Positions 224 to 22,639 of a stretch of 64,000 nucleotides of DNA are shown in pieces. The stretch lies in the NCBI RefSeq assembly GCF_058153355.1, contig NZ_CM177019.1; one strand, 5' to 3'. The notes beneath the pieces were generated by a model. The model was not told the DNA's origin. It saw nothing but the letters and a program-made list of their open reading frames with translations, and did not search any database. The position numbers and the translations under genes were made by a program. Numbering within the stretch: position 1 is the first letter of the stretch; every line of letters begins with the position of its first letter.

Positions 224-559
224 TTACTCCTTAGAGCCACCAAACTTGTTACCGATTACTCTCATTGCAGCCCCACGAATTGCATCGACCCCAATCAGCC
301 CCACCCCACCACCAATGGCAACAGAAAGCGATTTAGGCCATCCGACATACTCAAGCGCGGATGCAAAGGTCAGCGTCAGAGCGCCACAGAGCAAAATTTC
401 GAGTGTTTTTCGTTTCCAGCCGCCACCACCACCAAAATAGGCAATACGCAAACCAGCCATAACAATCGACATAATCACTGCGCCCAGCGGCGTATCTCCA
501 CGCCACCAGCTCTGGAACAACTCCAGCCAGTCCGGCCAGGTATTTGGGTTATGAGGCAT
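224..559 (-). CDS. Putative phage holin (111 aa, glycine-rich hydrophobic segments)
   Basis: ORF directly upstream of and coupled to the endolysin; hydrophobic stretches; assignment by position and composition only. Confidence 0.45.
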   Translation of the reverse strand: MPHNPNTWPDWLELFQSWWRGDTPLGAVIMSIVMAGLRIAYFGGGGGWKRKTLEILLCGALTLTFASALEYVGWPKSLSVAIGGGVGLIGVDAIRGAAMRVIGNKFGGSKE

Positions 560-636
560 TTAGTCATCTCTCACCTCGCGATTATTTGCGGGTGCTGTGT
601 TGGAAATAAAAAGGCCAAGCAACGTGGCCACCAGAA

Positions 637-1689
637 TTATTTCCCCACCAGTTCACTTACCTCTTTCACCGTCTGGTTAAACCGATCTGACTCAAACTCA
701 ACACCTAACGCCCGACGCCCCAGCGCCATTGCTGCTTTTATTGTGGAACCGGATCCCATAAAGAAATCAGCAACCAGATCGCCTGGTCGACTACTGGCAT
801 TGATTATTTGCCGGAGCATATCCGCAGGCTTCTCACACGGATGTTTACCCGGGTAGAACTGAACGGGTTTATGCGTCCAGACGTCGGTATAAGGCACGGA
901 AACTGATACGGAGAAATAGCGCCGGAGAGTTTTAAACTCATCCAGCAATTCAGAATATTTGCGATTCAGTGAATCATAAGATGCCACCAGCTGGTGGTGT
1001 GTGTGTTCCAGTTGTTGTTCCTGAAACTTCTCTGCCGCTATACGGGAAAACAGTGCCTGCAACTTTCGGTAGTCAGCCTCGTTCGGCAACTGCCACTGAC
1101 TGGCACCAAACCAGTGGGAAACCATATTTTTCTTACCAGTGGCTTCGGCAATCTGTTTTGCCGTTATCCCCAGTTCGGCACGAGCATCCCTGAAATACGA
1201 AATCAGCGGTGCCATTATGTGCTGTTTGAGTTCCCTTTCTTTTGCCGCATAGCCGTCACTTTTGCCGCGATATGGCCCCTGGTAATGTTCAGCAAACAGA
1301 ACGCGCTCTGTTGCGGGAAAATATGCGCGCAGACTTTCTTTATTACACCCGTTCCATCGTCCGGACGGCTTCGCCCAGATGATATGGTTAAGCACGTTGA
1401 AACGTTCACGCATCATGATCTCGATATCAGATGCGAGGCGATGTCCACAGAACAGGTAAAGGCTTCCGGCAGGTTTCAACACCCGCCAGAACTGGGCCAG
1501 ACAATGGTCCAGCCACTTAAGGTAATCTTCGTCCCCTTTCCACTGATTGTCCCAGCCGTTGGGTTTCACCTTGAAGTACGGCGGATCGGTAACAATCAGG
1601 TCAATGGAATCATCAGGCAGGGACTGAATAAAATACAGGCAATCAGCGTTGATTAAATCAGCACTGTTTATTTTTACAGTATTTTTCAT
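637..1689 (-). CDS. Orphan DNA methyltransferase (N6-adenine/N4-cytosine type; DPPY motif near N-terminus, FxGxGS motif near C-terminus)
   Basis: 350-aa ORF with IVTDPPYF and DFFMGSGSTIKAAM motifs; located in the phage late region between tR' and the lysis genes. Confidence 0.7.
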   Translation of the reverse strand: MKNTVKINSADLINADCLYFIQSLPDDSIDLIVTDPPYFKVKPNGWDNQWKGDEDYLKWLDHCLAQFWRVLKPAGSLYLFCGHRLASDIEIMMRERFNVLNHIIWAKPSGRWNGCNKESLRAYFPATERVLFAEHYQGPYRGKSDGYAAKERELKQHIMAPLISYFRDARAELGITAKQIAEATGKKNMVSHWFGASQWQLPNEADYRKLQALFSRIAAEKFQEQQLEHTHHQLVASYDSLNRKYSELLDEFKTLRRYFSVSVSVPYTDVWTHKPVQFYPGKHPCEKPADMLRQIINASSRPGDLVADFFMGSGSTIKAAMALGRRALGVEFESDRFNQTVKEVSELVGK

Positions 1690-1838
1690 GGATCAGTAAG
1701 CGTAACTCTGGTAGGCTCACTCTGCTTTTGCGCTAAAGCAGTGGGCCGAGGTTCGCTTGTGACCAGTAAGCATGAGCGAATGGCTGGCAGGTGCTACCAA
1801 CACCCACCAGCCGCCCATTTTCACAAATTAAAAGCCCT

Positions 1839-2057
1839 TCATTGCTGAAGGCGTCTGTAACAGCCGAACTGGTAATCTGCCAGCCCCGCCATAACCAGCT
1901 GGGTCAGTATTAACTGACAGCGTTCGCGTGAAAGGTATGTGTTTTGTGCTATCTCCCCGACTGTTGCCGGTTCGACGCTTAATTCATTAAAAACAACTTT
2001 CGCCGTTTCTGTCATATCTAGCTGTTTTAGCATGTCTTTTTTCCTTCTGGTTAACAT
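1839..2057 (-). CDS. Hypothetical small phage protein (72 aa)
   Basis: ORF from six-frame track, first ORF downstream of the tR'-like terminator; no motif recognised. Confidence 0.3.
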   Translation of the reverse strand: MLTRRKKDMLKQLDMTETAKVVFNELSVEPATVGEIAQNTYLSRERCQLILTQLVMAGLADYQFGCYRRLQQ

Positions 2058-2151
2058 GACATACCAATAACTCTTGTCTAAAAAGCCAGCAAGATAAAAA
2101 GTCAGTATTCACGACCACCAGCGTGTTTACCGTACTGCCAACATCAAGGCA

Positions 2152-2182
2152 CAAAAAAACCCGCTCAGCGGCGGGTTCTTAA
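2152..2182 (-). terminator. Rho-independent terminator (tR'-like) downstream of Q
   Basis: Minus-strand reading aacccgc-cgctga-gcgggtt (perfect 7-bp stem) followed by tttttgt. Confidence 0.6.
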
Positions 2183-2283
2183 ATCTTATCAACGGTAGAC
2201 ATACAAAGCCCATCGTTGGGACAATCTTATCCATATTTTTTGAAAAATGCAAGAATTATGTCGTCATCTTCGGCGAAAATCAT

Positions 2284-3036
2284 TTATCTCGTCACTTTTC
2301 TTAATTGCGTCTCAGCATATGCTTCTTCCTGCCAGCACTTTGTCACCAGTTTATCAATGACATCTGCATATCCTTTGTACCACTGATAATCCGTCAAATC
2401 TGGTACCAGTTTCTGTACATGACACCGCGCCAGTGTCGTTGGTAAACGGCTAAACCGGTTTCCATTGCAACGTCCACAAATCTTATAAACAGGCCTGCCA
2501 TGAAGCCGGGTCCTTTTTTCATCCAGGACAATACCTTTACCCTTACACCCTCTGCACGCTGTGCTGACTTCTCCCTTACCATGGCAATGCTGACACAGTT
2601 CCTTTACCCACTCTTCCTTGATAACAGATTCCCCGCTTCTGGAGTGTTTCACCACTTCGCGCAATACATTATGAAATCCAGTACCAGCACAATGCTCACA
2701 GCAAGCCTTACTTGCCGCAGACCTGGAATAATCAGCAAAGGCAAAATTCACAAGGTAAGGAATGATCTGTAGCCGGGTTTCTTCACTCAATTTGTTCAAT
2801 GTCGGGTTATCCAGTGCCATCGCGTAATTGAGCAGACCTTCAATCGCAAACTGAGGATCCTGAATACCAAGTTTTGCCAGGAATAAGGCAAACCCAAGCG
2901 GTGCTTTCGACTGCACCATCCCCTGCGCAGCCATTACATCCGTAATTGTTAAACCACCAGAGCCTGTCGCCGGTGCGTCATCGCTCAATATTGGAGATTT
3001 TGGGGAGTAATATTTCGGTAAGGCTTCAAGGTTCAT
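2284..3036 (-). CDS. Phage antitermination protein Q
   Basis: 250-aa ORF with YSPKSP, DVMAAQGM, FAFADYSRSAA and Cys-rich CxxC clusters resembling lambda Q. Confidence 0.75.
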   Translation of the reverse strand: MNLEALPKYYSPKSPILSDDAPATGSGGLTITDVMAAQGMVQSKAPLGFALFLAKLGIQDPQFAIEGLLNYAMALDNPTLNKLSEETRLQIIPYLVNFAFADYSRSAASKACCEHCAGTGFHNVLREVVKHSRSGESVIKEEWVKELCQHCHGKGEVSTACRGCKGKGIVLDEKRTRLHGRPVYKICGRCNGNRFSRLPTTLARCHVQKLVPDLTDYQWYKGYADVIDKLVTKCWQEEAYAETQLRKVTR

Positions 3037-3049
3037 GCTCGTTCTCCAC

Positions 3050-4045
3050 TTACGCCAGTACGCCTATTGCCAGCGCACGATCGATAAAACGAAATATCAG
3101 CTCCAGCTGGGAGCCATACTTCTCTTCAAATGCCGCGGTATCCGCATGCAACTCGTCGTGATGCTTTCTGCACAAAGGCAACACAAAGAGGTCATGCGCT
3201 TTTGTACCCATTCCGCCCTGACCGTGGCCTATCAGGTGGTGGGGATCATCAGCAGGCTTTCCACAACATGCACACGGCTGTGTCTTAACCCAGCGCGTGT
3301 ACTTTTCGTTAACCCAGCGGCGACGTTTTGGGCGTAACATAAAAGACTCCGGCGACTCCGGATCCACTTTCAGCGCCAGCACCTTTTTCACTTTATCCTG
3401 GATGATGCTGGTGGCAGGAACCGAAGGAACAAGGTCACTTTCCCGGGTGACAGACGGCACAACAGGCTTCGGTAATCTCAGTGCCTTACGGGCTGCACTT
3501 TCCGGCAAGGCACCCGCCAGGTCATTACGAACCAGCCACCAGCACAGTTCCGGCATTGTCACAACGTGACTATCATCAAAACCGAGATCCCGACGCACGA
3601 CAGACAACACCCAGCGGGCACAGTTATCCGTTGCCATTGATTCCAGCCGTTCCGTGAACTGATCGCGCAGCTGGTTATCGCAGTGCCAGCACAGACGGAT
3701 TGCGCCCGGCGCGTGTCGCATTGTGGTCATGTTCTCGCTGTGCCAGTCGGAATGAGGCCACTGACAGCCATTTTCACGAAGTAACCAGCTTTCAAGACAT
3801 TCCACGCCACCAGCACGACGGATCACTGCCTCATTGCGGAACACGCCCCGAACGGCAGGATCATCCGCCAGCGGTTGTGATACCGCCGGAACGGCACCAC
3901 TGGCGAAAGATGAATAACGTTCCGGCTCAGGCTCCAGCAGGACACGCCCCTGCATAAACAGGGGCATCAGCTCTGAACCTGGTCTGAACAATACGATCCC
4001 CATACGCGGGGCAATTTCAGGGGTCAGTAATGCTCTCACGGTCAC
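3050..4045 (-). CDS. Phage nin-region protein, DUF968-like (Cys/His motif near C-terminus)
   Basis: 331-aa ORF with C-terminal CACCGKPADDPHHLIGHG...CRKHHDELH motif; position between Q and rusA. Confidence 0.5.
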   Translation of the reverse strand: MTVRALLTPEIAPRMGIVLFRPGSELMPLFMQGRVLLEPEPERYSSFASGAVPAVSQPLADDPAVRGVFRNEAVIRRAGGVECLESWLLRENGCQWPHSDWHSENMTTMRHAPGAIRLCWHCDNQLRDQFTERLESMATDNCARWVLSVVRRDLGFDDSHVVTMPELCWWLVRNDLAGALPESAARKALRLPKPVVPSVTRESDLVPSVPATSIIQDKVKKVLALKVDPESPESFMLRPKRRRWVNEKYTRWVKTQPCACCGKPADDPHHLIGHGQGGMGTKAHDLFVLPLCRKHHDELHADTAAFEEKYGSQLELIFRFIDRALAIGVLA

Positions 4046-4046
4046 C

Positions 4047-4874
4047 TCAATGAACGGTATCGAGCAGCTTTAACAGCTCAGGGAATCGGGATTCGAAGAA
4101 ATGCGGCTGCGTCTCGCGCGGATTTGCGGGACTGGTGATGTTCTTGCCGAACATGCAGCCTTTCGCTGTCAGCGACCAGAATTTTTTGATGTTGTTAATC
4201 GCGGTACGGCTGTATCGTTCGCGTTGTTCGACGATCCCCAGCTTCGCCATCTGGTGATATGCCTGATTAGCCGTCAGGCGGATACCATACTGTTTCAGCA
4301 GTGCACTCAGCGACAGCGTAGGGCGGCTTGAACCATCTGGCGCATCAGCAGGGGCATCAATGGCATAGATCGGCATAAGTTCAGGAAGACCAGCTACCTT
4401 TGATAATTTCTGGTATGCACCAAGTTTCGAGGAGTTTGACAGATTTAGAGTCTTTGCTGCTGATTCAAGCAGAATGACCCCGGATTTGATTTTGTCGGAT
4501 ATGGTTTCTTCTGGTGATGAATTATGAAGCGCATCAAAAGTACGTATCACTTTTAAGCTGAATGCCGGGCTGATCCACATTGCATATGCATAGACCAGCT
4601 CTTTACAGACATACGTCCCACCATTGCGCCCCTGAATGGTGATGACAGGAATACTACGGGAATCTCCCGTAGTTTCTTCTTCCAATAATTCCACAAGAGC
4701 CTTCGTTTCAGGACGACGCATAAACTCGTGAACTTCCAGCGAACGGGAGGAGCGATTCTCACCAGCAGCAAGAAGAGCAGCTTTCTGAAGGTCGTTAAGA
4801 CAGTAGTTAGATTCGAAGTACTGGCGCACAGAAACGCCATCAATTACAAGCAACTGATTCATTGGTTTCTCCAC
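4047..4874 (-). CDS. Phage KilA-N / antirepressor-like protein
   Basis: 275-aa ORF in nin region; family assignment from recollection, moderate. Confidence 0.4.
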   Translation of the reverse strand: MEKPMNQLLVIDGVSVRQYFESNYCLNDLQKAALLAAGENRSSRSLEVHEFMRRPETKALVELLEEETTGDSRSIPVITIQGRNGGTYVCKELVYAYAMWISPAFSLKVIRTFDALHNSSPEETISDKIKSGVILLESAAKTLNLSNSSKLGAYQKLSKVAGLPELMPIYAIDAPADAPDGSSRPTLSLSALLKQYGIRLTANQAYHQMAKLGIVEQRERYSRTAINNIKKFWSLTAKGCMFGKNITSPANPRETQPHFFESRFPELLKLLDTVH

Positions 4875-5024
4875 AAATTTTTATCCACGAGCGGGACTGC
4901 ACTCCCTTTTCGTTGATGCAGGATGCACTTACTGCGATTTTTAATAGTTATCAAGGGCATACTGTTCATAAATACAGTATCTTTAACGAGGTAATACCCA
5001 AATTTAGGGTGTTGCTCAATTCCG

Positions 5025-5420
5025 TTACCGAGTTGCTAATTTGCAACTCGCTTTTTCGTACTTACTGATAGTGATCTCGACCTTCCCTTCCGGGATAACC
5101 GGTCCCCACTCCACCAGCATTCTTTTCACCTGACTGTCGTCTTCCCACACACCCGCGTGGGTCAGAGCGTCAAACAGCGCCTTGTTATAGTTGTCCAGAT
5201 CGCGGATCCGGTTATCCGGAGGAAACAACACGATCTCCACTGAAGCAGGTGCCGACGTTGGTTTCGGCAGACGACGTAACTGCTCAACTATTGCTGCGCA
5301 CGCCGCGCTCTGGAATTTGCGCCCCGCCGCGCTTATCAGGCTTTTACCAGCAAACGCCCCTTTGTTAGGGTGTCGCCAGTACGTATTCACGCTGGGCGGG
5401 AAAGGCAGGATCAGTTTCAT
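5025..5420 (-). CDS. rusA: RusA-family Holliday junction resolvase
   Basis: 131-aa ORF with PPSVNTYWRH and RDLDNYNKALFDALT motifs typical of RusA. Confidence 0.75.
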   Translation of the reverse strand: MKLILPFPPSVNTYWRHPNKGAFAGKSLISAAGRKFQSAACAAIVEQLRRLPKPTSAPASVEIVLFPPDNRIRDLDNYNKALFDALTHAGVWEDDSQVKRMLVEWGPVIPEGKVEITISKYEKASCKLATR

Positions 5421-5743
5421 ACTTTCAGGCCTCTCTCATGTAACCAGTGGGTTGCACGCAGCCTTGCGTTTTCCTCACCGGCAAGCAGTGAGCGGATAAT
5501 CCCGACAGCCTCGCTGTCGTCGTCCTTCACCGCGGTATGAAGCGTTATCCCCCGGGCCACGCCACGCTTTATCGTGATGACGCCTTTTTTCTCCAGTGCG
5601 CGAAGATGCTCCACCGCTGCATTCACTGAACGGTATCCCAGCATGGTTGCCACCTCCTGATTGGTTGGCGGGAAGCCACGTTCTTTCTGGTAAGAAATCA
5701 GCATATCCAGCACCTGCTGCTGGCATTGAGTTAATGTCGTCAT
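5417..5743 (-). CDS. LexA N-terminal-type winged-helix DNA-binding protein (no peptidase domain)
   Basis: 108-aa ORF, translationally coupled between the Dam gene and rusA. Confidence 0.45.
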   Translation of the reverse strand: MTTLTQCQQQVLDMLISYQKERGFPPTNQEVATMLGYRSVNAAVEHLRALEKKGVITIKRGVARGITLHTAVKDDDSEAVGIIRSLLAGEENARLRATHWLHERGLKV

Positions 5744-6393
5744 GCCGCCATCTCCCTGACCAGTTTTTCCGCCTGCTGGCGAACCTGCGCCAGAAAGGCC
5801 TCACCACATGCCTCAAGTTCATCGCGCCCGATGTAGCTGATTGCCGGTCCCTTCCAGGTCTTGTCGAAAACAACAATAGCACCAGCGAAGAAAGCGCCTG
5901 TCGGCACCTGCTTCTCGTCCTTCGGTATAAACCAGGCAGGCAGTTCAAAACCAATACGCCCGCGAATAAAAGCAATATGATCTGCATCTTCCGGCCACCA
6001 CACTTCGCTGGTGGCAGCTTTGATCAGGAAAACATAGCGCCCGCCTTTATCACGCATGGCACTGGCATGTTTCATGATGTAACGCATGCCGGTGATGTAT
6101 TGCCCCTCATGCTGACTGGCGCGGCTGTATGGGGGATTACCAAAGGCAGCACCTTTAAGCTCCGCAAGACGTTCTGACCAGTCATGCGCCAGCGCGTTGT
6201 CTTCCGCCGTGTAATACGCGGCACATTTGGCGTTATCACCGTCAGTGAACAGATCCAGAACAAACGGACCAAACAAGGTGTTAATTCCCCAGAAAATGTT
6301 GTCCGGCGTGCGCCACTGATCGCCCACTTCCTTCAGTTCATGGGCTGGTTTGTTCCGCAGTTCTACCAGCGCCTGGCAATATTTATTACTCAT
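5740..6393 (-). CDS. Phage N6-adenine DNA methyltransferase (Dam-like, NPPY motif)
   Basis: 217-aa ORF with FGNPPYSRA motif. Confidence 0.7.
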   Translation of the reverse strand: MSNKYCQALVELRNKPAHELKEVGDQWRTPDNIFWGINTLFGPFVLDLFTDGDNAKCAAYYTAEDNALAHDWSERLAELKGAAFGNPPYSRASQHEGQYITGMRYIMKHASAMRDKGGRYVFLIKAATSEVWWPEDADHIAFIRGRIGFELPAWFIPKDEKQVPTGAFFAGAIVVFDKTWKGPAISYIGRDELEACGEAFLAQVRQQAEKLVREMAA

Positions 6394-6485
6394 TAAGCCC
6401 CCACGTAAAAAGCATCCGCAATGTCTCCGGAAGTACAGCCCGGATGGGCTTCAATGAATTTCTGAACGTCATTTAACAGACTCAT
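6393..6485 (-). CDS. Small ORF (30 aa) between replication gene and Dam gene
   Basis: Manual translation MSLLNDVQKFIEAHPGCTSGDIADAFYVGA; its stop overlaps the Dam ATG (TAATG) and its ATG lies 2 nt after the upstream stop; not in ORF track because short. Confidence 0.25.
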   Translation of the reverse strand: MSLLNDVQKFIEAHPGCTSGDIADAFYVGA

Positions 6486-6487
6486 GA

Positions 6488-7480
6488 TCACCCCCTGAAT
6501 CCTGCCGGGATCTGGCTGTAGTCCACGTTGTCGTAACTGGCTTTGAAGTACGGGTCTTCACGTTTTTCTGTGTGCGTGCTGACGGACGGCGATAAGCGCA
6601 GGGAAAGCTCATCCCATTTTTCCCGCAACTTCGACGGGCTGAGCACGTTACGGCACCAGAACGGATCGCGGCTGACGCGGCTGTACATCTCGCAGATTTG
6701 TTTGTGAGTACGACCATCCTGCACACACATCAGGCGAATTTCGTTTGCCCATGCTGTCCAGTTCGGTTCTTTGGGACGAACCACCTCGCCGTCACATTCG
6801 GCGGCCTGCTCGTACAGGGCGATGATTTTTTTCCAGAGCCACTGTGCGCAGGTCAAATCATCCTGCGTTCCCCACTGGCGCTTTTTAGGGCTGAATACAA
6901 CCGCATCAGGATGGCGAGTTAAAAACTCCTGTTCAGCCGTTTGCGTGTCCGGTTGCGAAGCGTCCGGACGAGAAGAGGTTTTATTCTCTGTAGTAATCTC
7001 TGTTGTATTCTCTGTAAGATCATTGGGCCATTTTGACCCGATGACAGCGTGTCGTTTTGAACCAATGGATCGTGTCATTTTGCGCCCATCCATCAGGTCA
7101 CTTTGACCCGATGGAGAAGTGCATTTTGACCTGATGGATTCGTTCACTTTGACCTCTTCTAAAAGCTCACTTTCATAGTTGATCGTGTAGAAGTTGGTCA
7201 TGTCACGCTTCGATTTATTGAGTTGCTCGCGACGCAAAACCCCAAGTGATTTCAAGCTTGCAAATGTGCGTTTCAGAGTGGACTCTGACCAGAACGGAAA
7301 CTGCTCCAGCCACTGTTCTGTCGTGTTATAAACCCAGCGAATTCCGCCATGCTCTGTGCCTGAATTCGTTTCATTCAGCCAGTAATGAAGCTGCTGCAAC
7401 ACAATTGCCTCATTCAGACCAATACGGCATGCAAGATCACGATTTATCACAATGGGCTGGGATGTCATTAACAGGCTCAT
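6488..7480 (-). CDS. Phage replication initiation protein (O-like, iteron-containing) with DnaT-like C-terminal tail
   Basis: 330-aa ORF; C-terminus DYSQIPAGFRG resembles the C-terminus of host DnaT in this same window ([13 protein letters not shown]); internal iterons. Confidence 0.6.
   Translation of the reverse strand: MSLLMTSQPIVINRDLACRIGLNEAIVLQQLHYWLNETNSGTEHGGIRWVYNTTEQWLEQFPFWSESTLKRTFASLKSLGVLRREQLNKSKRDMTNFYTINYESELLEEVKVNESIRSKCTSPSGQSDLMDGRKMTRSIGSKRHAVIGSKWPNDLTENTTEITTENKTSSRPDASQPDTQTAEQEFLTRHPDAVVFSPKKRQWGTQDDLTCAQWLWKKIIALYEQAAECDGEVVRPKEPNWTAWANEIRLMCVQDGRTHKQICEMYSRVSRDPFWCRNVLSPSKLREKWDELSLRLSPSVSTHTEKREDPYFKASYDNVDYSQIPAGFRG
7028..7156. repeat. Iteron array (5-6 direct repeats of ~CAYTTTGACCYGATGG), candidate prophage replication origin
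   Basis: Direct repeats visible at ~7028, 7052, 7098, 7120, 7144 inside the replication gene, as for lambda ori inside O. Confidence 0.6.
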
Positions 7481-7489
7481 GACCGACCT

Positions 7490-7828
7490 CTATTTCCCTG
7501 AATTTACGACGAAACTGTTCGAGCGGACTGAAGCATTCATGTTCATAGCCTTCACGGAGGTAGATAACCCGTTGTGTTTCCGGCTCCCAACGAATGACTC
7601 TGACGGGCACTCCGTAGTGATCTTTGAACCAGCGGTTAACTTGTCGCAAAGGACTGTCTCCTTCTGCCGGTTGAAATCACCCACAGCCCACTCTGCAAAG
7701 CTGTGGGTTACAATTTCCCTGTCACCTGGTACATTCACTGCATAGCAATACTCCACCTTCGCTTTTCCACCCGGTACAGGAAGCGCAATCAGTTGCGAGC
7801 GACGGTAGTGTGTTGTTAAACTGTTCAT
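7490..7828 (-). CDS. Hypothetical phage protein (112 aa), coupled between the YdaT-like gene and the replication gene
   Basis: Start overlaps upstream stop (ATGA); its stop TAG is followed by AGGTCGGTC then the downstream ATG; an alternative overlapping frame (7437..7649) also looks protein-like. Confidence 0.35.
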
Positions 7829-8409
7829 GCGTTAGTTTCTCCACAGACACAAAACGCCACGACGCCCGGAGCTGCACACTCGCGGGCGTCACTCTTTTCT
7901 GGAGCGCAAAAGATTTTGTAGACCAGTGCTGCATGCTCCTGGAGCTTCGAAATTGACAGATACAACTCATCATTAATTACTGTCTGCTCGTGTGGCTCCA
8001 CTACCCCATCTTCGATTGCCGAACGAATCTGCTTTGAGTAACTCCCGATCTGTTCGATGACTTCCAGCAGACGCTGGTTTATATCGGCGTTCTCTACTTC
8101 CTCAATTTCAGGAAGCGATACAAACACCCCACCAGCAGACTGTGCGACAGCATCCGCAATGTAGTGAGTGCCAGCCGCGCGCTGTAAAATCATTGCCCAT
8201 CCCAGCGGGAAAATCTGATCGCCATCTGCACGAAGGCGGTTGAATAAAGCGTTCTCTGTTACATCCAGCCACTCAGCAGCTTCAGCGTAACCTCCCGGCA
8301 ACGCCGCGATAGTTTTTCTGACAGCTTTCACGTACCACTCAGGCTGTTTTTCTACTTTCCAGTGATGCTTACCCACGGCTATCTCCTTAAAACTGTGGTT
8401 ACTTTCCAT
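7825..8409 (-). CDS. Phage regulatory protein, YdaT/CII-like (194 aa)
   Basis: Position immediately downstream of the cro-like gene, as ydaS-ydaT in Rac; family from recollection. Confidence 0.4.
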
Positions 8410-8647
8410 CAGATAAGTCTTTAATCTTTTGAAAAATATCTGGACGTAATTTTTCTTTTGATACGCCAGTGGTCATTTCAATGAATATCGAGAGCTTTGC
8501 AGGGGGACGCTTTTCTCTGTTCAACCAGTTCCAGACATGTTGTTGCTTTACTAAACGACCACTGCTGGCTGTGAGCTTCCGAGCCAATTCTGATTGACCA
8601 CCAGCCAGAGCGATTGCCTCTGATAAGGCTAATTGCTCAGGTGTCAT
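8399..8647 (-). CDS. Cro-like HTH regulator (YdaS-like, 82 aa)
   Basis: Small ORF divergent from the cI-like repressor; AGGAGA RBS upstream. Confidence 0.55.
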   Translation of the reverse strand: MTPEQLALSEAIALAGGQSELARKLTASSGRLVKQQHVWNWLNREKRPPAKLSIFIEMTTGVSKEKLRPDIFQKIKDLSDGK

Positions 8648-8784: not shown

Positions 8785-9471
8785 GTGAAAACATTGGCAG
8801 AAAGACTAAAAAGCGAAAGAGAAAAAGCAGGAATGAGTCAGGCGCAACTAGCTGAAAAAATTGGACTTTCACAACAATCCGTAGCGAAAATCGAGAATGG
8901 AGAAACTCAACAGCCTCGGAAAATTAAAGAGATTGCTAAAGTGTTAGGGGTTTCTCAAAAGTGGTTGCAATTGGGCATTGAGGATAACGCGTCTTTCCCA
9001 AACCTTGTTGTAAAGGAGGCTGAAAGTACAACATTAGATCCTGACATTTTTGCAAACATTCCTGTCCTAGATGTCGAATTATCAGCGGGTAATGGATGTT
9101 TGGCTGAAATAGTTGAATCAACTGTAGACTGGTTCCCGCTAAGAAGGATTGATTTAAGGAAAGCTGGTGTATGTGTCTCCAATGCAAAGATCGTAAAAAT
9201 TTGGGGTAATAGTTTACTACCTGTACTTAACAATGGAGATTTTGTTGCTGTTGATGTTTCCCAAACAGTTCCTATTCGTGATGGGGATCTTTATGCTATA
9301 CGTGATGGCGTATTACTTAGAGTTAAAATATTGATCAATTTACCTGACGGTGGTCTGATTCTAAGAAGTTTCAATAAAGATGAGTATCCAGATGAAATAC
9401 TCACCTTCGAAGATAGGCGTTCCAGAATTCACGTTATAGGTAGAGTATTCTGGTCATCGCGCACTTGGTAA
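8785..9471 (+). CDS. CI-like phage repressor (HTH-XRE plus S24 LexA-like peptidase domain), GTG start
   Basis: 228-aa ORF; N-terminal HTH (QAQLAEKIGLSQQSVAKIENG) and C-terminal domain of the size expected for an S24 peptidase. Confidence 0.75.
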   Translation: MKTLAERLKSEREKAGMSQAQLAEKIGLSQQSVAKIENGETQQPRKIKEIAKVLGVSQKWLQLGIEDNASFPNLVVKEAESTTLDPDIFANIPVLDVELSAGNGCLAEIVESTVDWFPLRRIDLRKAGVCVSNAKIVKIWGNSLLPVLNNGDFVAVDVSQTVPIRDGDLYAIRDGVLLRVKILINLPDGGLILRSFNKDEYPDEILTFEDRRSRIHVIGRVFWSSRTW

Positions 9472-15394: not shown

Positions 15395-16618
15395 TCAGTT
15401 TGAATCAGAGATAGTACAATTAACAATCGATTCAACCCTCTTCCACCATGCCAGGTAAGCTTTACGCTGTTCTTCTAGATAATCGCTCTTATCATAAACT
15501 TGCCATACCCCTGGCAGCTTATGACCAAGCATAATTTCTGCGATATGAGGCGCAGTAAGATCAGAAAAATTTGTTCGAGCTGTACGTCTCAAGTCATGAA
15601 GAGACCAATGAGGGAATTGATATCCTAAACACCGCCATGCGTACTGCATTAAATTGTAAGGCAGCGACTGCAATGATGTCCGACCAACGGGTTCCCTGCT
15701 TCCTTCCTTAGTAAAAAGCATATCGGAACCATTGTTCATAGAGATAGCGTACTTTATAAGCTCTTCAACCGGTTCAATAATGGGCCGCTTTAGCGGTTCG
15801 CCTGTTATCTCCCCTGTCTTATGTCGTTCTGGTGGTACAGTCCATACTTTATTAATGAAATCAAAATCGTCCACCCGGGCGGTAATTAGCTCTGAACTAC
15901 GGCAACCAAAATGCAGCAATAGTTTAATGAAGGCCCGGTATTTAGGAACCATTCGAGAACCATCGATCGCAGCATAAAGGATTTTAATTTCATCATGTGT
16001 CAGAAACCGTTTCTTCTGACCTTTACGGATATCCATATCTTTACCCGTGATATCCGACAGCGGGCGAGTTTCAATGAGCTTTCTCTTATACGCCCAGACA
16101 TGGGCCTGCTTTGCGTTAATTAGCAATCGGTCTGCTATTGCTGGAGTCTTAGTGCTAAGAGGCTCCAGGACTTCTAACCAATCATGCAATGTAGCTGCAT
16201 CGTGAGGGATATTCCCGATTTTAGAGAACAGGTGCAGCTCAAACGAGCGAAGTATCTGTTCAGAACCTTTTTTATTTTTTACACAATATGCTTCATACCA
16301 AGCACGGATCACAGACTCTACCGTCATGGCTTCAGTAGCTTTTCGTTTTTCAGCCTGCTTGACCAATCGTGGATTACGGTTTGACTCGAGTTCACCACGA
16401 AGACGGATAACTTCTTCTCTGGCCTCTTTTAATCCAGTTGCCGGGTAAGTTCCGATATCAAGACGCTCACCTTTCCCTGCCCATTGATAACGATATTGGA
16501 ACACTACGCGACCTTTCGGTGATACTCTGACAGACAGACCATCACGATCGGATTTAACCAAAACCTTATCACGTTCCTTTCCAACGACTGAACGCAACCA
16601 CGCATCAGACAGCGCCAT
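15395..16618 (-). CDS. Tyrosine-type site-specific integrase (P4-like family)
   Basis: 407-aa ORF with HDLRRTARTN and LGH...Y catalytic-region motifs and an arm-binding-type N-terminus. Confidence 0.85.
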   Translation of the reverse strand: MALSDAWLRSVVGKERDKVLVKSDRDGLSVRVSPKGRVVFQYRYQWAGKGERLDIGTYPATGLKEAREEVIRLRGELESNRNPRLVKQAEKRKATEAMTVESVIRAWYEAYCVKNKKGSEQILRSFELHLFSKIGNIPHDAATLHDWLEVLEPLSTKTPAIADRLLINAKQAHVWAYKRKLIETRPLSDITGKDMDIRKGQKKRFLTHDEIKILYAAIDGSRMVPKYRAFIKLLLHFGCRSSELITARVDDFDFINKVWTVPPERHKTGEITGEPLKRPIIEPVEELIKYAISMNNGSDMLFTKEGSREPVGRTSLQSLPYNLMQYAWRCLGYQFPHWSLHDLRRTARTNFSDLTAPHIAEIMLGHKLPGVWQVYDKSDYLEEQRKAYLAWWKRVESIVNCTISDSN

Positions 16619-17003
16619 TACTCACCTTGTACAAATCGCAAAACACCTCTGCTGTTTTGTACATTATGTACAAGCATATGTACAGATTTTTGATGAAAGC
16701 AAGCTGATCGATTTAAAGTTACATGAAAGAGTTTTCAATTAAAGAAGCTACATAAGCAAATGTATTTAAATGAGTTATATAGCTCAACTTCAATTAACTG
16801 AAAGGATTTTGAAAGAGTAAAAGAGCTTTAATTTGGACTTAATTATTGGGGTGAGAAATAATGGCAAAAGTGCGGCGCTTCGCCACCTCTTGCAAATAAG
16901 GAGACAACGTCATAATTCTTTCTTCTTGAGTAAGCGGCATCGCGCCGCGCTTGTTGAAAACGAAAAATTGCGGCTATTTTACCCATCAACGGGGGGGAGG
17001 CAA

Positions 17004-22317: not shown

Positions 22318-22404
22318 GCGAAGGTGGCGGAATTGGTAGACGCGCTAGCTTCAGGTGTTAGTGTCCTTACGGACGTGGGGGTTCAAGTCCCCCCCCTCGC
22401 ACCA
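22318..22404 (+). tRNA. leuQ: tRNA-Leu (anticodon CAG), copy 1
   Basis: 87-nt sequence gcgaaggtggcggaattggtagacgcg...cttCAGgtg...ggttcaagtccccccctcgcacca with encoded CCA. Confidence 0.9.
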
Positions 22405-22432
22405 AAAACCACGTTGATATTGCTCGCACTGG

Positions 22433-22519
22433 GCGAAGGTGGCGGAATTGGTAGACGCGCTAGCTTCAGGTGTTAGTGTTCTTACGGACGTGGGGGTTCA
22501 AGTCCCCCCCCTCGCACCA
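22433..22519 (+). tRNA. leuP: tRNA-Leu (anticodon CAG), copy 2; one substitution in the variable arm relative to copies 1 and 3
   Basis: Same sequence except gtgttcttacgg instead of gtgtccttacgg. Confidence 0.9.
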
Positions 22520-22552
22520 AACGAGGCGATATCAAAAAAGTAAGATGACTGT

Positions 22553-22639
22553 GCGAAGGTGGCGGAATTGGTAGACGCGCTAGCTTCAGGTGTTAGTGTC
22601 CTTACGGACGTGGGGGTTCAAGTCCCCCCCCTCGCACCA
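22553..22639 (+). tRNA. leuV: tRNA-Leu (anticodon CAG), copy 3
   Basis: Identical to copy 1. Confidence 0.9.

Follow-up and report, generated by a model that had tools for sequence, protein, structure and literature searches.

Why should one lambdoid prophage carry two DNA methyltransferase genes with no restriction endonuclease beside either of them? The question is raised by a 64,000-nucleotide (nt) stretch of contig NZ_CM177019.1 (assembly GCF_058153355.1), which constitutes our window, the part of the prophage to the left of position 1 falling outside it. An earlier note on this DNA had called a DPPY enzyme in the late region and a Dam-like enzyme in the nin region and had offered anti-restriction or host epigenetic modulation as their purpose; both genes are present where it had put them (637 to 1689 and 5740 to 6393, respectively). 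We think it likely that the early enzyme is directed at GATC and that the late enzyme, dependent on the antitermination protein Q, works against restriction by broadly methylating progeny DNA before it is packaged.

The 350-amino-acid (aa) product of the late gene matches the PF01555 (N6_N4_Mtase) model with an E value of 1.4e-41 (143.3 bits against a cutoff of 26.7) and has the motif order of the beta class, in which motif IV, (D/N/S)PP(Y/F), comes first and FxGxG last: DPPY lies near the N terminus (residues 35 to 38), followed by a central recognition domain and, toward the C terminus, by motif I as FMGSG (residues 310 to 314). Solved beta-class structures align with both ends of the protein. 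It is 97% identical to orf48 of phage SfV, 87% identical to the reconstructed ancestor Anc291, 82% identical to P27p24 of phiP27, 69% identical to SUPREM, and 53% identical to ARM81ld_p56. Against M.EcoGII, for which we used the sequence in a machine-read supplementary table of PMC11551740, identity is 80 to 81% over the full length and 59 of 78 residues (76%) in the recognition region (residues 160 to 237). Gene identities and motifs are direct observations for both enzymes, as are the synteny, the prevalence, and the lack of a partner endonuclease; the same holds for a leader RNA, which was found to exist and to covary, as reported below.

What is known of specificity and expression in this family comes from the literature on homologues. 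M.EcoGI and M.EcoGII, both prophage encoded, are the founding non-specific adenine methyltransferases; neither is expressed in the lysogen, and constitutive expression is harmful (PMC5778455). Non-specific adenine methylation has also been found by experiment for ancestral variants of the family (PMC11551740) and for OS31_p25 of Serratia and ARM81ld_p56 of Aeromonas, and the authors of the latter work predicted the same property for the Escherichia phage homologues (PMC7556043). A homologue from sequence type 131 (ST131) was silent by reverse transcription-PCR (PMC4659465), and toxicity and lysogen silence recur across three reports (PMC5778455, PMC4659465, PMC12707154). Because the enzymes found to be non-specific, which include every family member tested, are spread across the family, lying at 53 to 81% identity to the late protein and originating from Escherichia, Aeromonas, and Serratia phages, we strongly infer that the late enzyme, as a member of the M.EcoGI/M.EcoGII family, is a non-specific methyltransferase producing N6-methyladenine (m6A).

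The 217-aa enzyme belongs to a different family, matching PF05869 (Dam) with an E value of 6.9e-46 (156.5 bits against a cutoff of 28.1) and the NCBIfam equivalog TIGR01712, "phage N-6-adenine-methyltransferase," with 253.8 bits against 97.05. NPPY occupies residues 86 to 89, and in an alignment with the Dam proteins of SfV, HP1, and VT2-Sa the invariant columns W-x-T-P, L-D, N, and NPPYS are all kept, so that the inactive motifs that closer alignment might have revealed, and that the earlier note had named as grounds for doubt, are found in neither enzyme. Identity is 27% to HP1 Dam and 32% to VT2-Sa Dam, and a sequence search of the PDB with this enzyme returned no relative. Since the protein is 99% identical to SfV dam/orf41, which its depositors named "dam, DNA adenine methylase," its target is most likely GATC. 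The SfV genome paper published by Allison and coworkers in 2002 reportedly showed by experiment that orf41 is a Dam methylase. The start of the gene is overlapped, as TAATG, by a 30-codon open reading frame (ORF), an arrangement that suggests translational coupling, and its stop codon overlaps the next start. The window does not preserve the promoter annotated for dam in SfV, homology beginning approximately 17 nt before the ATG; given this, the gapless packing, and the lack of room for a promoter of its own, we place the gene in the early-right operon. There it is flanked without gaps by the O-like gene and the 30-codon ORF on one side and by a gene for a LexA DNA-binding domain and RusA on the other, so it is probably made together with the replication genes.

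Restriction endonuclease models from Pfam and PADLOC gave no match among the neighboring proteins tested, and both methyltransferases are therefore filed as orphans, in agreement with the earlier note. That note also held that the late gene sits between tR' and the lysis genes, which is indeed its position: the gene follows Q, a candidate pR', and a strong terminator and lies directly upstream of holin S. The homologous position of the tR'-type terminator is annotated in SfV as a putative rho-independent terminator, and the candidate pR' was called because of its location between the Q stop codon and this terminator. The hairpin between the methyltransferase and holin S folds at -7.5 kcal/mol, no better than shuffled sequences, at a site where SfV also has an annotated putative terminator. 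The succession of an antiterminator or late promoter with a terminator, the methyltransferase, and the lysis genes recurs in O157 prophages and phiP27 as well as in N15, Aeromonas phiARM81ld, and phages of Morganella and Hafnia; because the last four are unrelated temperate phages, we regard the late methyltransferase not as a random moron but as the conserved opening function of the late region. The earlier note had described the slot as one in which lambdoid phages often carry morons such as toxins. In O157 and other E. coli prophages and in phiP27, tRNA genes (Ile, Arg) come immediately after a module comprising a small winged-helix ORF, a leader RNA, and the methyltransferase (approximately 80% identity), and in phiP27 the tRNA genes are followed by stx2e; the recurrence of the order across phages argues that the methyltransferase is no arbitrary cargo. 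In O157 and other E. coli prophages and in phiP27, this module is preceded by Q proteins of differing families.

We suggest the following sequence of events. The Dam-like enzyme, probably made alongside the replication genes from the early-right operon, would keep fast-replicating phage DNA fully Dam methylated or would supply Dam activity in dam-poor hosts. The late gene, placed behind Q, a candidate pR', and a strong tR' and before the holin, should need antitermination and would thus be transcribed only when Q acts, late in lytic growth; its product would methylate adenines of progeny DNA almost regardless of sequence context, shortly before the DNA is packaged, protecting virion DNA in advance from most Type I, II, and III restriction in the next host, as Mom does for Mu. 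Given the toxicity of enzymes of this kind, it would be silenced in the lysogen, and the leader RNA and the upstream winged-helix protein might serve as an additional, post-transcriptional brake or timer. Anti-restriction is the role assumed for the late enzyme in the literature (PMC5778455, PMC12707154). In this scheme, we infer when the genes are expressed, that the early enzyme is specific for GATC, that the late one counters restriction, and whatever part the RNA or the winged-helix protein has in regulation.

Several considerations weigh against this proposal. Specificity and timing rest on homology and position, and the pR' call is weak, the candidate agreeing with the consensus at 7 of 12 positions and having been missed by the consensus scan. 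GATC and the other 4-mer palindromes, counted in the prophage part and compared with the host part, are neither depleted nor enriched; for GATC, 60 sites were observed in the prophage part against 66 to 71 expected, with no clustering, so the role of the Dam-like enzyme cannot be read from composition. The literature available to us yielded no case of lambdoid virion DNA hypermethylated by an M.EcoGII-type enzyme, no plating defect of a deletion mutant, and no direct proof that such methylation widens host range. Broad m6A would also sensitize DNA to m6A-dependent Type IV nucleases.

The Dam-like enzyme could instead serve transactions of the phage's own DNA, such as replication timing, avoidance of mismatch repair, packaging, or regulation, in the manner of P1 Dam at pac, and not anti-restriction. 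Its gene lies among replication and recombination genes (O-like, RusA) in an early operon, lambda DNA is Dam methylated by the host enzyme only to approximately 50% (PMC3299994), and P1 packaging needs Dam methylation, the in vivo role of phage Dam being described as unclear (PMC12707154, PMC7556043). We nevertheless think it somewhat less likely than not that this is what the gene is for, since neither clustering nor bias of GATC was detected and the related phage SfIV lacks a dam-like gene (PMC3851460), which is accordingly dispensable for this type of phage; such a role is in any case compatible with anti-restriction and does not exclude it.

The other purpose put forward in the earlier note, host epigenetic modulation, is poorly supported; on this reading one or both enzymes would be expressed by the prophage and reprogram host genes through new methylation marks. 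Some phage-borne methyltransferases do alter host transcription, M.EcoGIII, part of a restriction-modification system, being an example in work cited in PMC6602927, and a separate dam promoter is annotated in SfV. The sequence of that promoter is, however, not conserved in the window; lysogens yielded neither transcripts of M.EcoGI, M.EcoGII, and M.EcoMV nor a signal of their methylation, and these enzymes are toxic if expressed (PMC5778455, PMC4659465); the late gene here is located behind a strong terminator downstream of Q; and GATC methylation would duplicate that of host Dam, from which extra Dam homologues were indistinguishable in the methylomes of PMC6602927. We consider host reprogramming improbable. 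Still less credit attaches to the proposal that progeny DNA is not the main substrate and that the late enzyme instead places m6A in host or phage RNA or shuts off the host as a toxin: M.EcoGII methylates RNA and DNA:RNA hybrids in vitro (PMC5778455), and the leader of the late gene is itself a structured RNA with an A-rich tail, but the initial rate on RNA is approximately 100-fold below that on DNA (0.12 versus 11.12; PMC11551740, Table S3), and expression just before lysis would leave scant time for effects at the RNA level. That either methyltransferase supplies the modification activity for a cryptic system of restriction or defense, with the DUF968/HNH-like protein or an unrecognized neighbor as nuclease, is scarcely credible, for against the sub-threshold HNHc_6 match of the DUF968 protein and its PHROGs label "HNH endonuclease" stand the lack of a PADLOC match, the other genes that separate it from both methyltransferases, the occurrence of the late methyltransferase without DUF968 in many loci, among them those of N15, phiARM81ld, and the Morganella and Hafnia phages, and the difficulty that a non-specific methyltransferase cannot sensibly be paired with a site-specific nuclease.

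The leader of the late gene may be the sole new part of the locus. The spacer of 149 nt between the small winged-helix ORF and the late methyltransferase folds at -58 kcal/mol (z score, -2.9), and none of 200 shuffled sequences was as stable; the structure, approximately 140 nt in length, comprises a closing stem, a long hairpin (P1), a hairpin with a UCAC loop (P2), a third hairpin (P3), and an A-rich tail. At the nucleotide level it surpasses the adjoining coding sequence downstream in conservation, and some blocks are invariant across phages of E. coli, Klebsiella, Hafnia, and Morganella. A first scan of related loci retrieved only copies that were 97 to 98% identical, the diversity coming from queries with the Morganella and N15 homologues. 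A covariance model, R1, built from 22 non-redundant copies and searched against 100 sources (the window and 99 loci with methyltransferase homologues), matched 91 of them, the window included, among lambdoid, N15-like, and Aeromonas phages. In almost all of these matches, that in N15 among them, the RNA ends at the start codon of the methyltransferase; the exceptions are phiARM81ld and two related loci, where its end lies farther upstream, in phiARM81ld at the start of an annotated Com-like gene that overlaps the methyltransferase. When viral contigs were searched with an RNA-only pattern, 87 loci were recovered and the methyltransferase lay 129 to 134 nt downstream in all of them, a single outlier being due to the tblastn alignment; the small winged-helix ORF was upstream in 84.

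Covariation supports the fold. In the R1 alignment, which was fitted to the model, 91.9% of cells are paired against 34 to 42% in slid controls, both partners have changed in 22 of 28 pairs, and the observed scores were not reached in any of 500 shuffles; an independent RNAalifold run retained the closing stem and the long hairpin, with two-sided changes in 15 of 17 pairs. G-U pairs far exceed A-C combinations, consistent with an RNA transcribed in the same orientation as the methyltransferase gene. Against Rfam 15, the window and six diverse loci gave no match at E <= 1 beyond weak, terminator-driven matches to leaders. A small ORF was rejected as the explanation of the conserved stretch, because the 33-codon frame of the window meets an early stop in the O157 copy and, in Hafnia, continues into the methyltransferase gene in a different frame, as was identity with the prophage anti-small-RNAs AgvB and AsxR, which measure 51 to 60 nt and lie downstream of moron genes (PMC4104026).

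Over the 12 nt that precede the AUG, unpaired probability averages 0.39, a tendency toward pairing that not every lineage shares. A helix between the P2 loop and the region 4 to 8 nt before the AUG is paired in 83.5% of cells against at most 39% in slid controls, with two-sided changes that come mostly from one clade, and masking of the start site by the P2 loop is thus suggestive only. We tentatively propose that the leader represents an undescribed cis-regulatory class dedicated to M.EcoGII-family genes, gating or timing the translation of a toxic enzyme, for instance by pairing of the P2 loop before the AUG, a proposal that we rate as plausible but short of probable. The trigger might be the co-encoded winged-helix protein, the methyltransferase itself, or a small molecule such as S-adenosylmethionine or S-adenosylhomocysteine. 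Two further features of the leader may be recorded. The P3 loop (approximately 1720 to 1740) carries short palindromes that are specific to lineages (GCGC, GTGCAC, ACGCGT, and GTCGAC), which hints at loop-loop dimerization or a dimeric binding site. At the methyltransferase start itself (1687 to 1694, minus strand), the context GATC(C/T)ATG is conserved, and the E. coli copies lack an obvious Shine-Dalgarno sequence; in other genera, AAAAAAGG is found 13 to 17 nt upstream of the methyltransferase start.

The small ORF upstream of the leader could alternatively begin at an ATG at position 2057, which would extend its product to 72 aa. Three homologues give sub-threshold matches to TrmB, MarR, and DprA_WH; an AlphaFold2 model of the product (predicted local distance difference test score, 88.6) has the order helix-helix-helix-strand-strand, and its best fold matches are winged-helix domains, including the N-terminal domain of IclR and the mRNA-binding winged-helix domains of SelB. 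The model, predicted with confidence, presents the product as a stand-alone winged helix, which may act as a regulator. It accompanies the methyltransferase in lambdoid phages and is absent from N15 and phiARM81ld. A Com-like zinc-finger gene was looked for upstream of the late methyltransferase, and the ORF found there is the winged helix, with only two cysteines.

The features discussed here, and those around them, are collected in the table below. Every gene between positions 1 and 8650 lies on the minus strand, as befits the right arm of a lambdoid prophage, here one of the SfV/mEp460 type, of which the region covers the early-right part and the beginning of the late part.

Features of the prophage region in the window, in order of transcription from the Cro-like gene to holin S, followed by the repressor gene and the integrase gene
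Feature	Position	Strand	Evidence or remark
Cro-like gene	8399-8647	-	First in transcription order
CII-like gene	7825-8409	-	Transcribed after the Cro-like gene
O-like replication gene	6488-7480	-	Upstream of the 217-aa methyltransferase gene
30-codon ORF	6393-6485	-	Occupies the gap between the O-like and dam-like genes
Phage Dam-family methyltransferase, 217 aa	5740-6393	-	PF05869, TIGR01712, NPPY
LexA DNA-binding-domain-only protein, 108 aa	5417-5743	-	PF01726 and phrog_362 matches
RusA	5025-5420	-	nin-type region
KilA-N protein	4047-4874	-	nin-type region
DUF968 protein	3050-4045	-	Sub-threshold HNHc_6 match; PHROGs family label "HNH endonuclease"
Antitermination protein Q	2284-3036	-	PF03589 match, E 1.1e-52
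Candidate late promoter pR', low confidence	2224-2252	-	TTGCAT, 17 nt, TAAGAT, read from the sequence
tR'-type intrinsic terminator	2153-2180	-	10-bp G+C-rich stem, 6-nt loop, U-run; sequence and fold
Winged-helix small ORF, 64 aa (SfV orf47, phrog_331)	1839-2033	-	phrog_331 match, E 2.5e-34
Terminator-like hairpin across the stop codon of the small ORF	1836-1851	-	Consensus scan
Structured leader RNA, ending at the methyltransferase AUG	1687-1829	-	Fold, covariance model, covariation
Late beta-class methyltransferase, 350 aa	637-1689	-	PF01555, DPPY, FMGSG
Weak terminator-like hairpin, after the methyltransferase stop and before holin S	613-629	-	Consensus scan
Holin S, first gene of the lysis cassette	224-559	-	PF05106 match, E 2.6e-27
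cI-like repressor gene	8785-9471	Divergent	
Prophage integrase	15395-16618		

Some of the surrounding features merit a remark of their own. The protein with only a LexA DNA-binding domain lacks a peptidase domain and could interfere with SOS or repressor control; the start of its gene overlaps the dam-like stop codon, and the gene is kept together with dam and RusA in SfV and in many E. coli prophages. The DUF968 protein belongs to the YdfU family and has an HNH-like C terminus at sub-threshold level; its gene is a common one in nin regions and shows no linkage to methyltransferases in other phages. The junction of prophage and host is near position 17000, where the host genes yjjG, rimI, holD, and rsmC are found, and three tandem tRNA-Leu(CAG) genes (leuQPV) occupy positions 22318 to 22639. 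Compared with complete E. coli genomes, the window has no exact match, the prophage block being at most approximately 97% identical and the host part 97.5 to 98.4% identical, which places its source in an Escherichia or Shigella lineage absent from that collection.

The closest phage records are those of SfV, mEp460, and several Stx2c and Stx2a phages. Among 5426 complete E. coli genomes, DNA similar to the late gene with its leader stretch is present in 2648, the dam-like gene at >=95% identity in 2119, and the whole 5.7-kb block in at least 270; yfdM of K-12 is a remnant of the dam-like gene. The methyltransferase pair is thus ordinary, both families being known and among the commonest genes of E. 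coli prophages, and the unusualness implied by the earlier note is overstated, given the same pair and order in SfV and the presence of each gene in roughly 40 to 50% of complete genomes. Published work already covers the pair, its positions, and its likely role against restriction, and the finding in that form adds little. This type of prophage would nevertheless be a convenient system in which to examine whether a late enzyme hypermethylates lambdoid virion DNA and widens host range. M.EcoGII, moreover, is widely used as a tool for chromatin footprinting and RNA methylation and is hard to express because it is toxic, so that a natural RNA device controlling the expression of M.EcoGII-type enzymes, if the proposal for the leader is true, would be of interest to phage biologists and tool builders alike.

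Among known systems, SfV has an identical order, with dam, a LexA-like gene, and RusA followed further along by DUF968, Q, a terminator, orf47, orf48, a second terminator, and S; it differs in having orf39 and orf40 upstream of dam, where the window has the O-like gene, and in its dam promoter, which is not conserved in the window. The presence of multiple methylases was reportedly noted already in the SfV genome paper. HP1 Dam and M.EcoVT2Dam share with the 217-aa enzyme the PF05869 family, the motif columns, and the condition of small orphans in the early or nin region, but the enzyme described here exceeds them by approximately 45 aa, owing to inserted segments that follow NPPYS and lie close to the C terminus. 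An assignment of Hia5/Hin1523 to PF05869 together with this enzyme was considered and dropped, these proteins being alpha-class Dam relatives according to the paper that describes them.

For the late enzyme, the nearest characterized systems are M.EcoGII and M.EcoGI, from prophages of E. coli O104:H4 C227-11, which are likewise prophage-borne orphans of 349 to 350 aa with beta-class motif order; M.EcoGII nevertheless diverges by approximately 20% overall and by 24% in the recognition region, and the late enzyme is nearer to Anc291 (87%). In phiARM81ld and Serratia OS31, p56 and p25 belong to the same family and are encoded directly upstream of the holin gene (PMC7556043). The leader RNA is shared with phiARM81ld according to the covariance model, in a search that left out the Serratia OS31 locus; in phiARM81ld a Com-like zinc-finger gene lies between the RNA and the methyltransferase, whereas in the window a winged-helix ORF lies upstream of the RNA. 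Mu Mom, which has an acyltransferase fold, and Hia5, an alpha-class relative of Dam, are not homologous to the late enzyme, and the window is without a homologue of Com, but Mom/Com and Hia5/Hin1523 may be likened to it in its proposed function, as late, toxic, and broad modification of adenine that is silent in the lysogen and tightly controlled (PMC3299994, PMC12707154).

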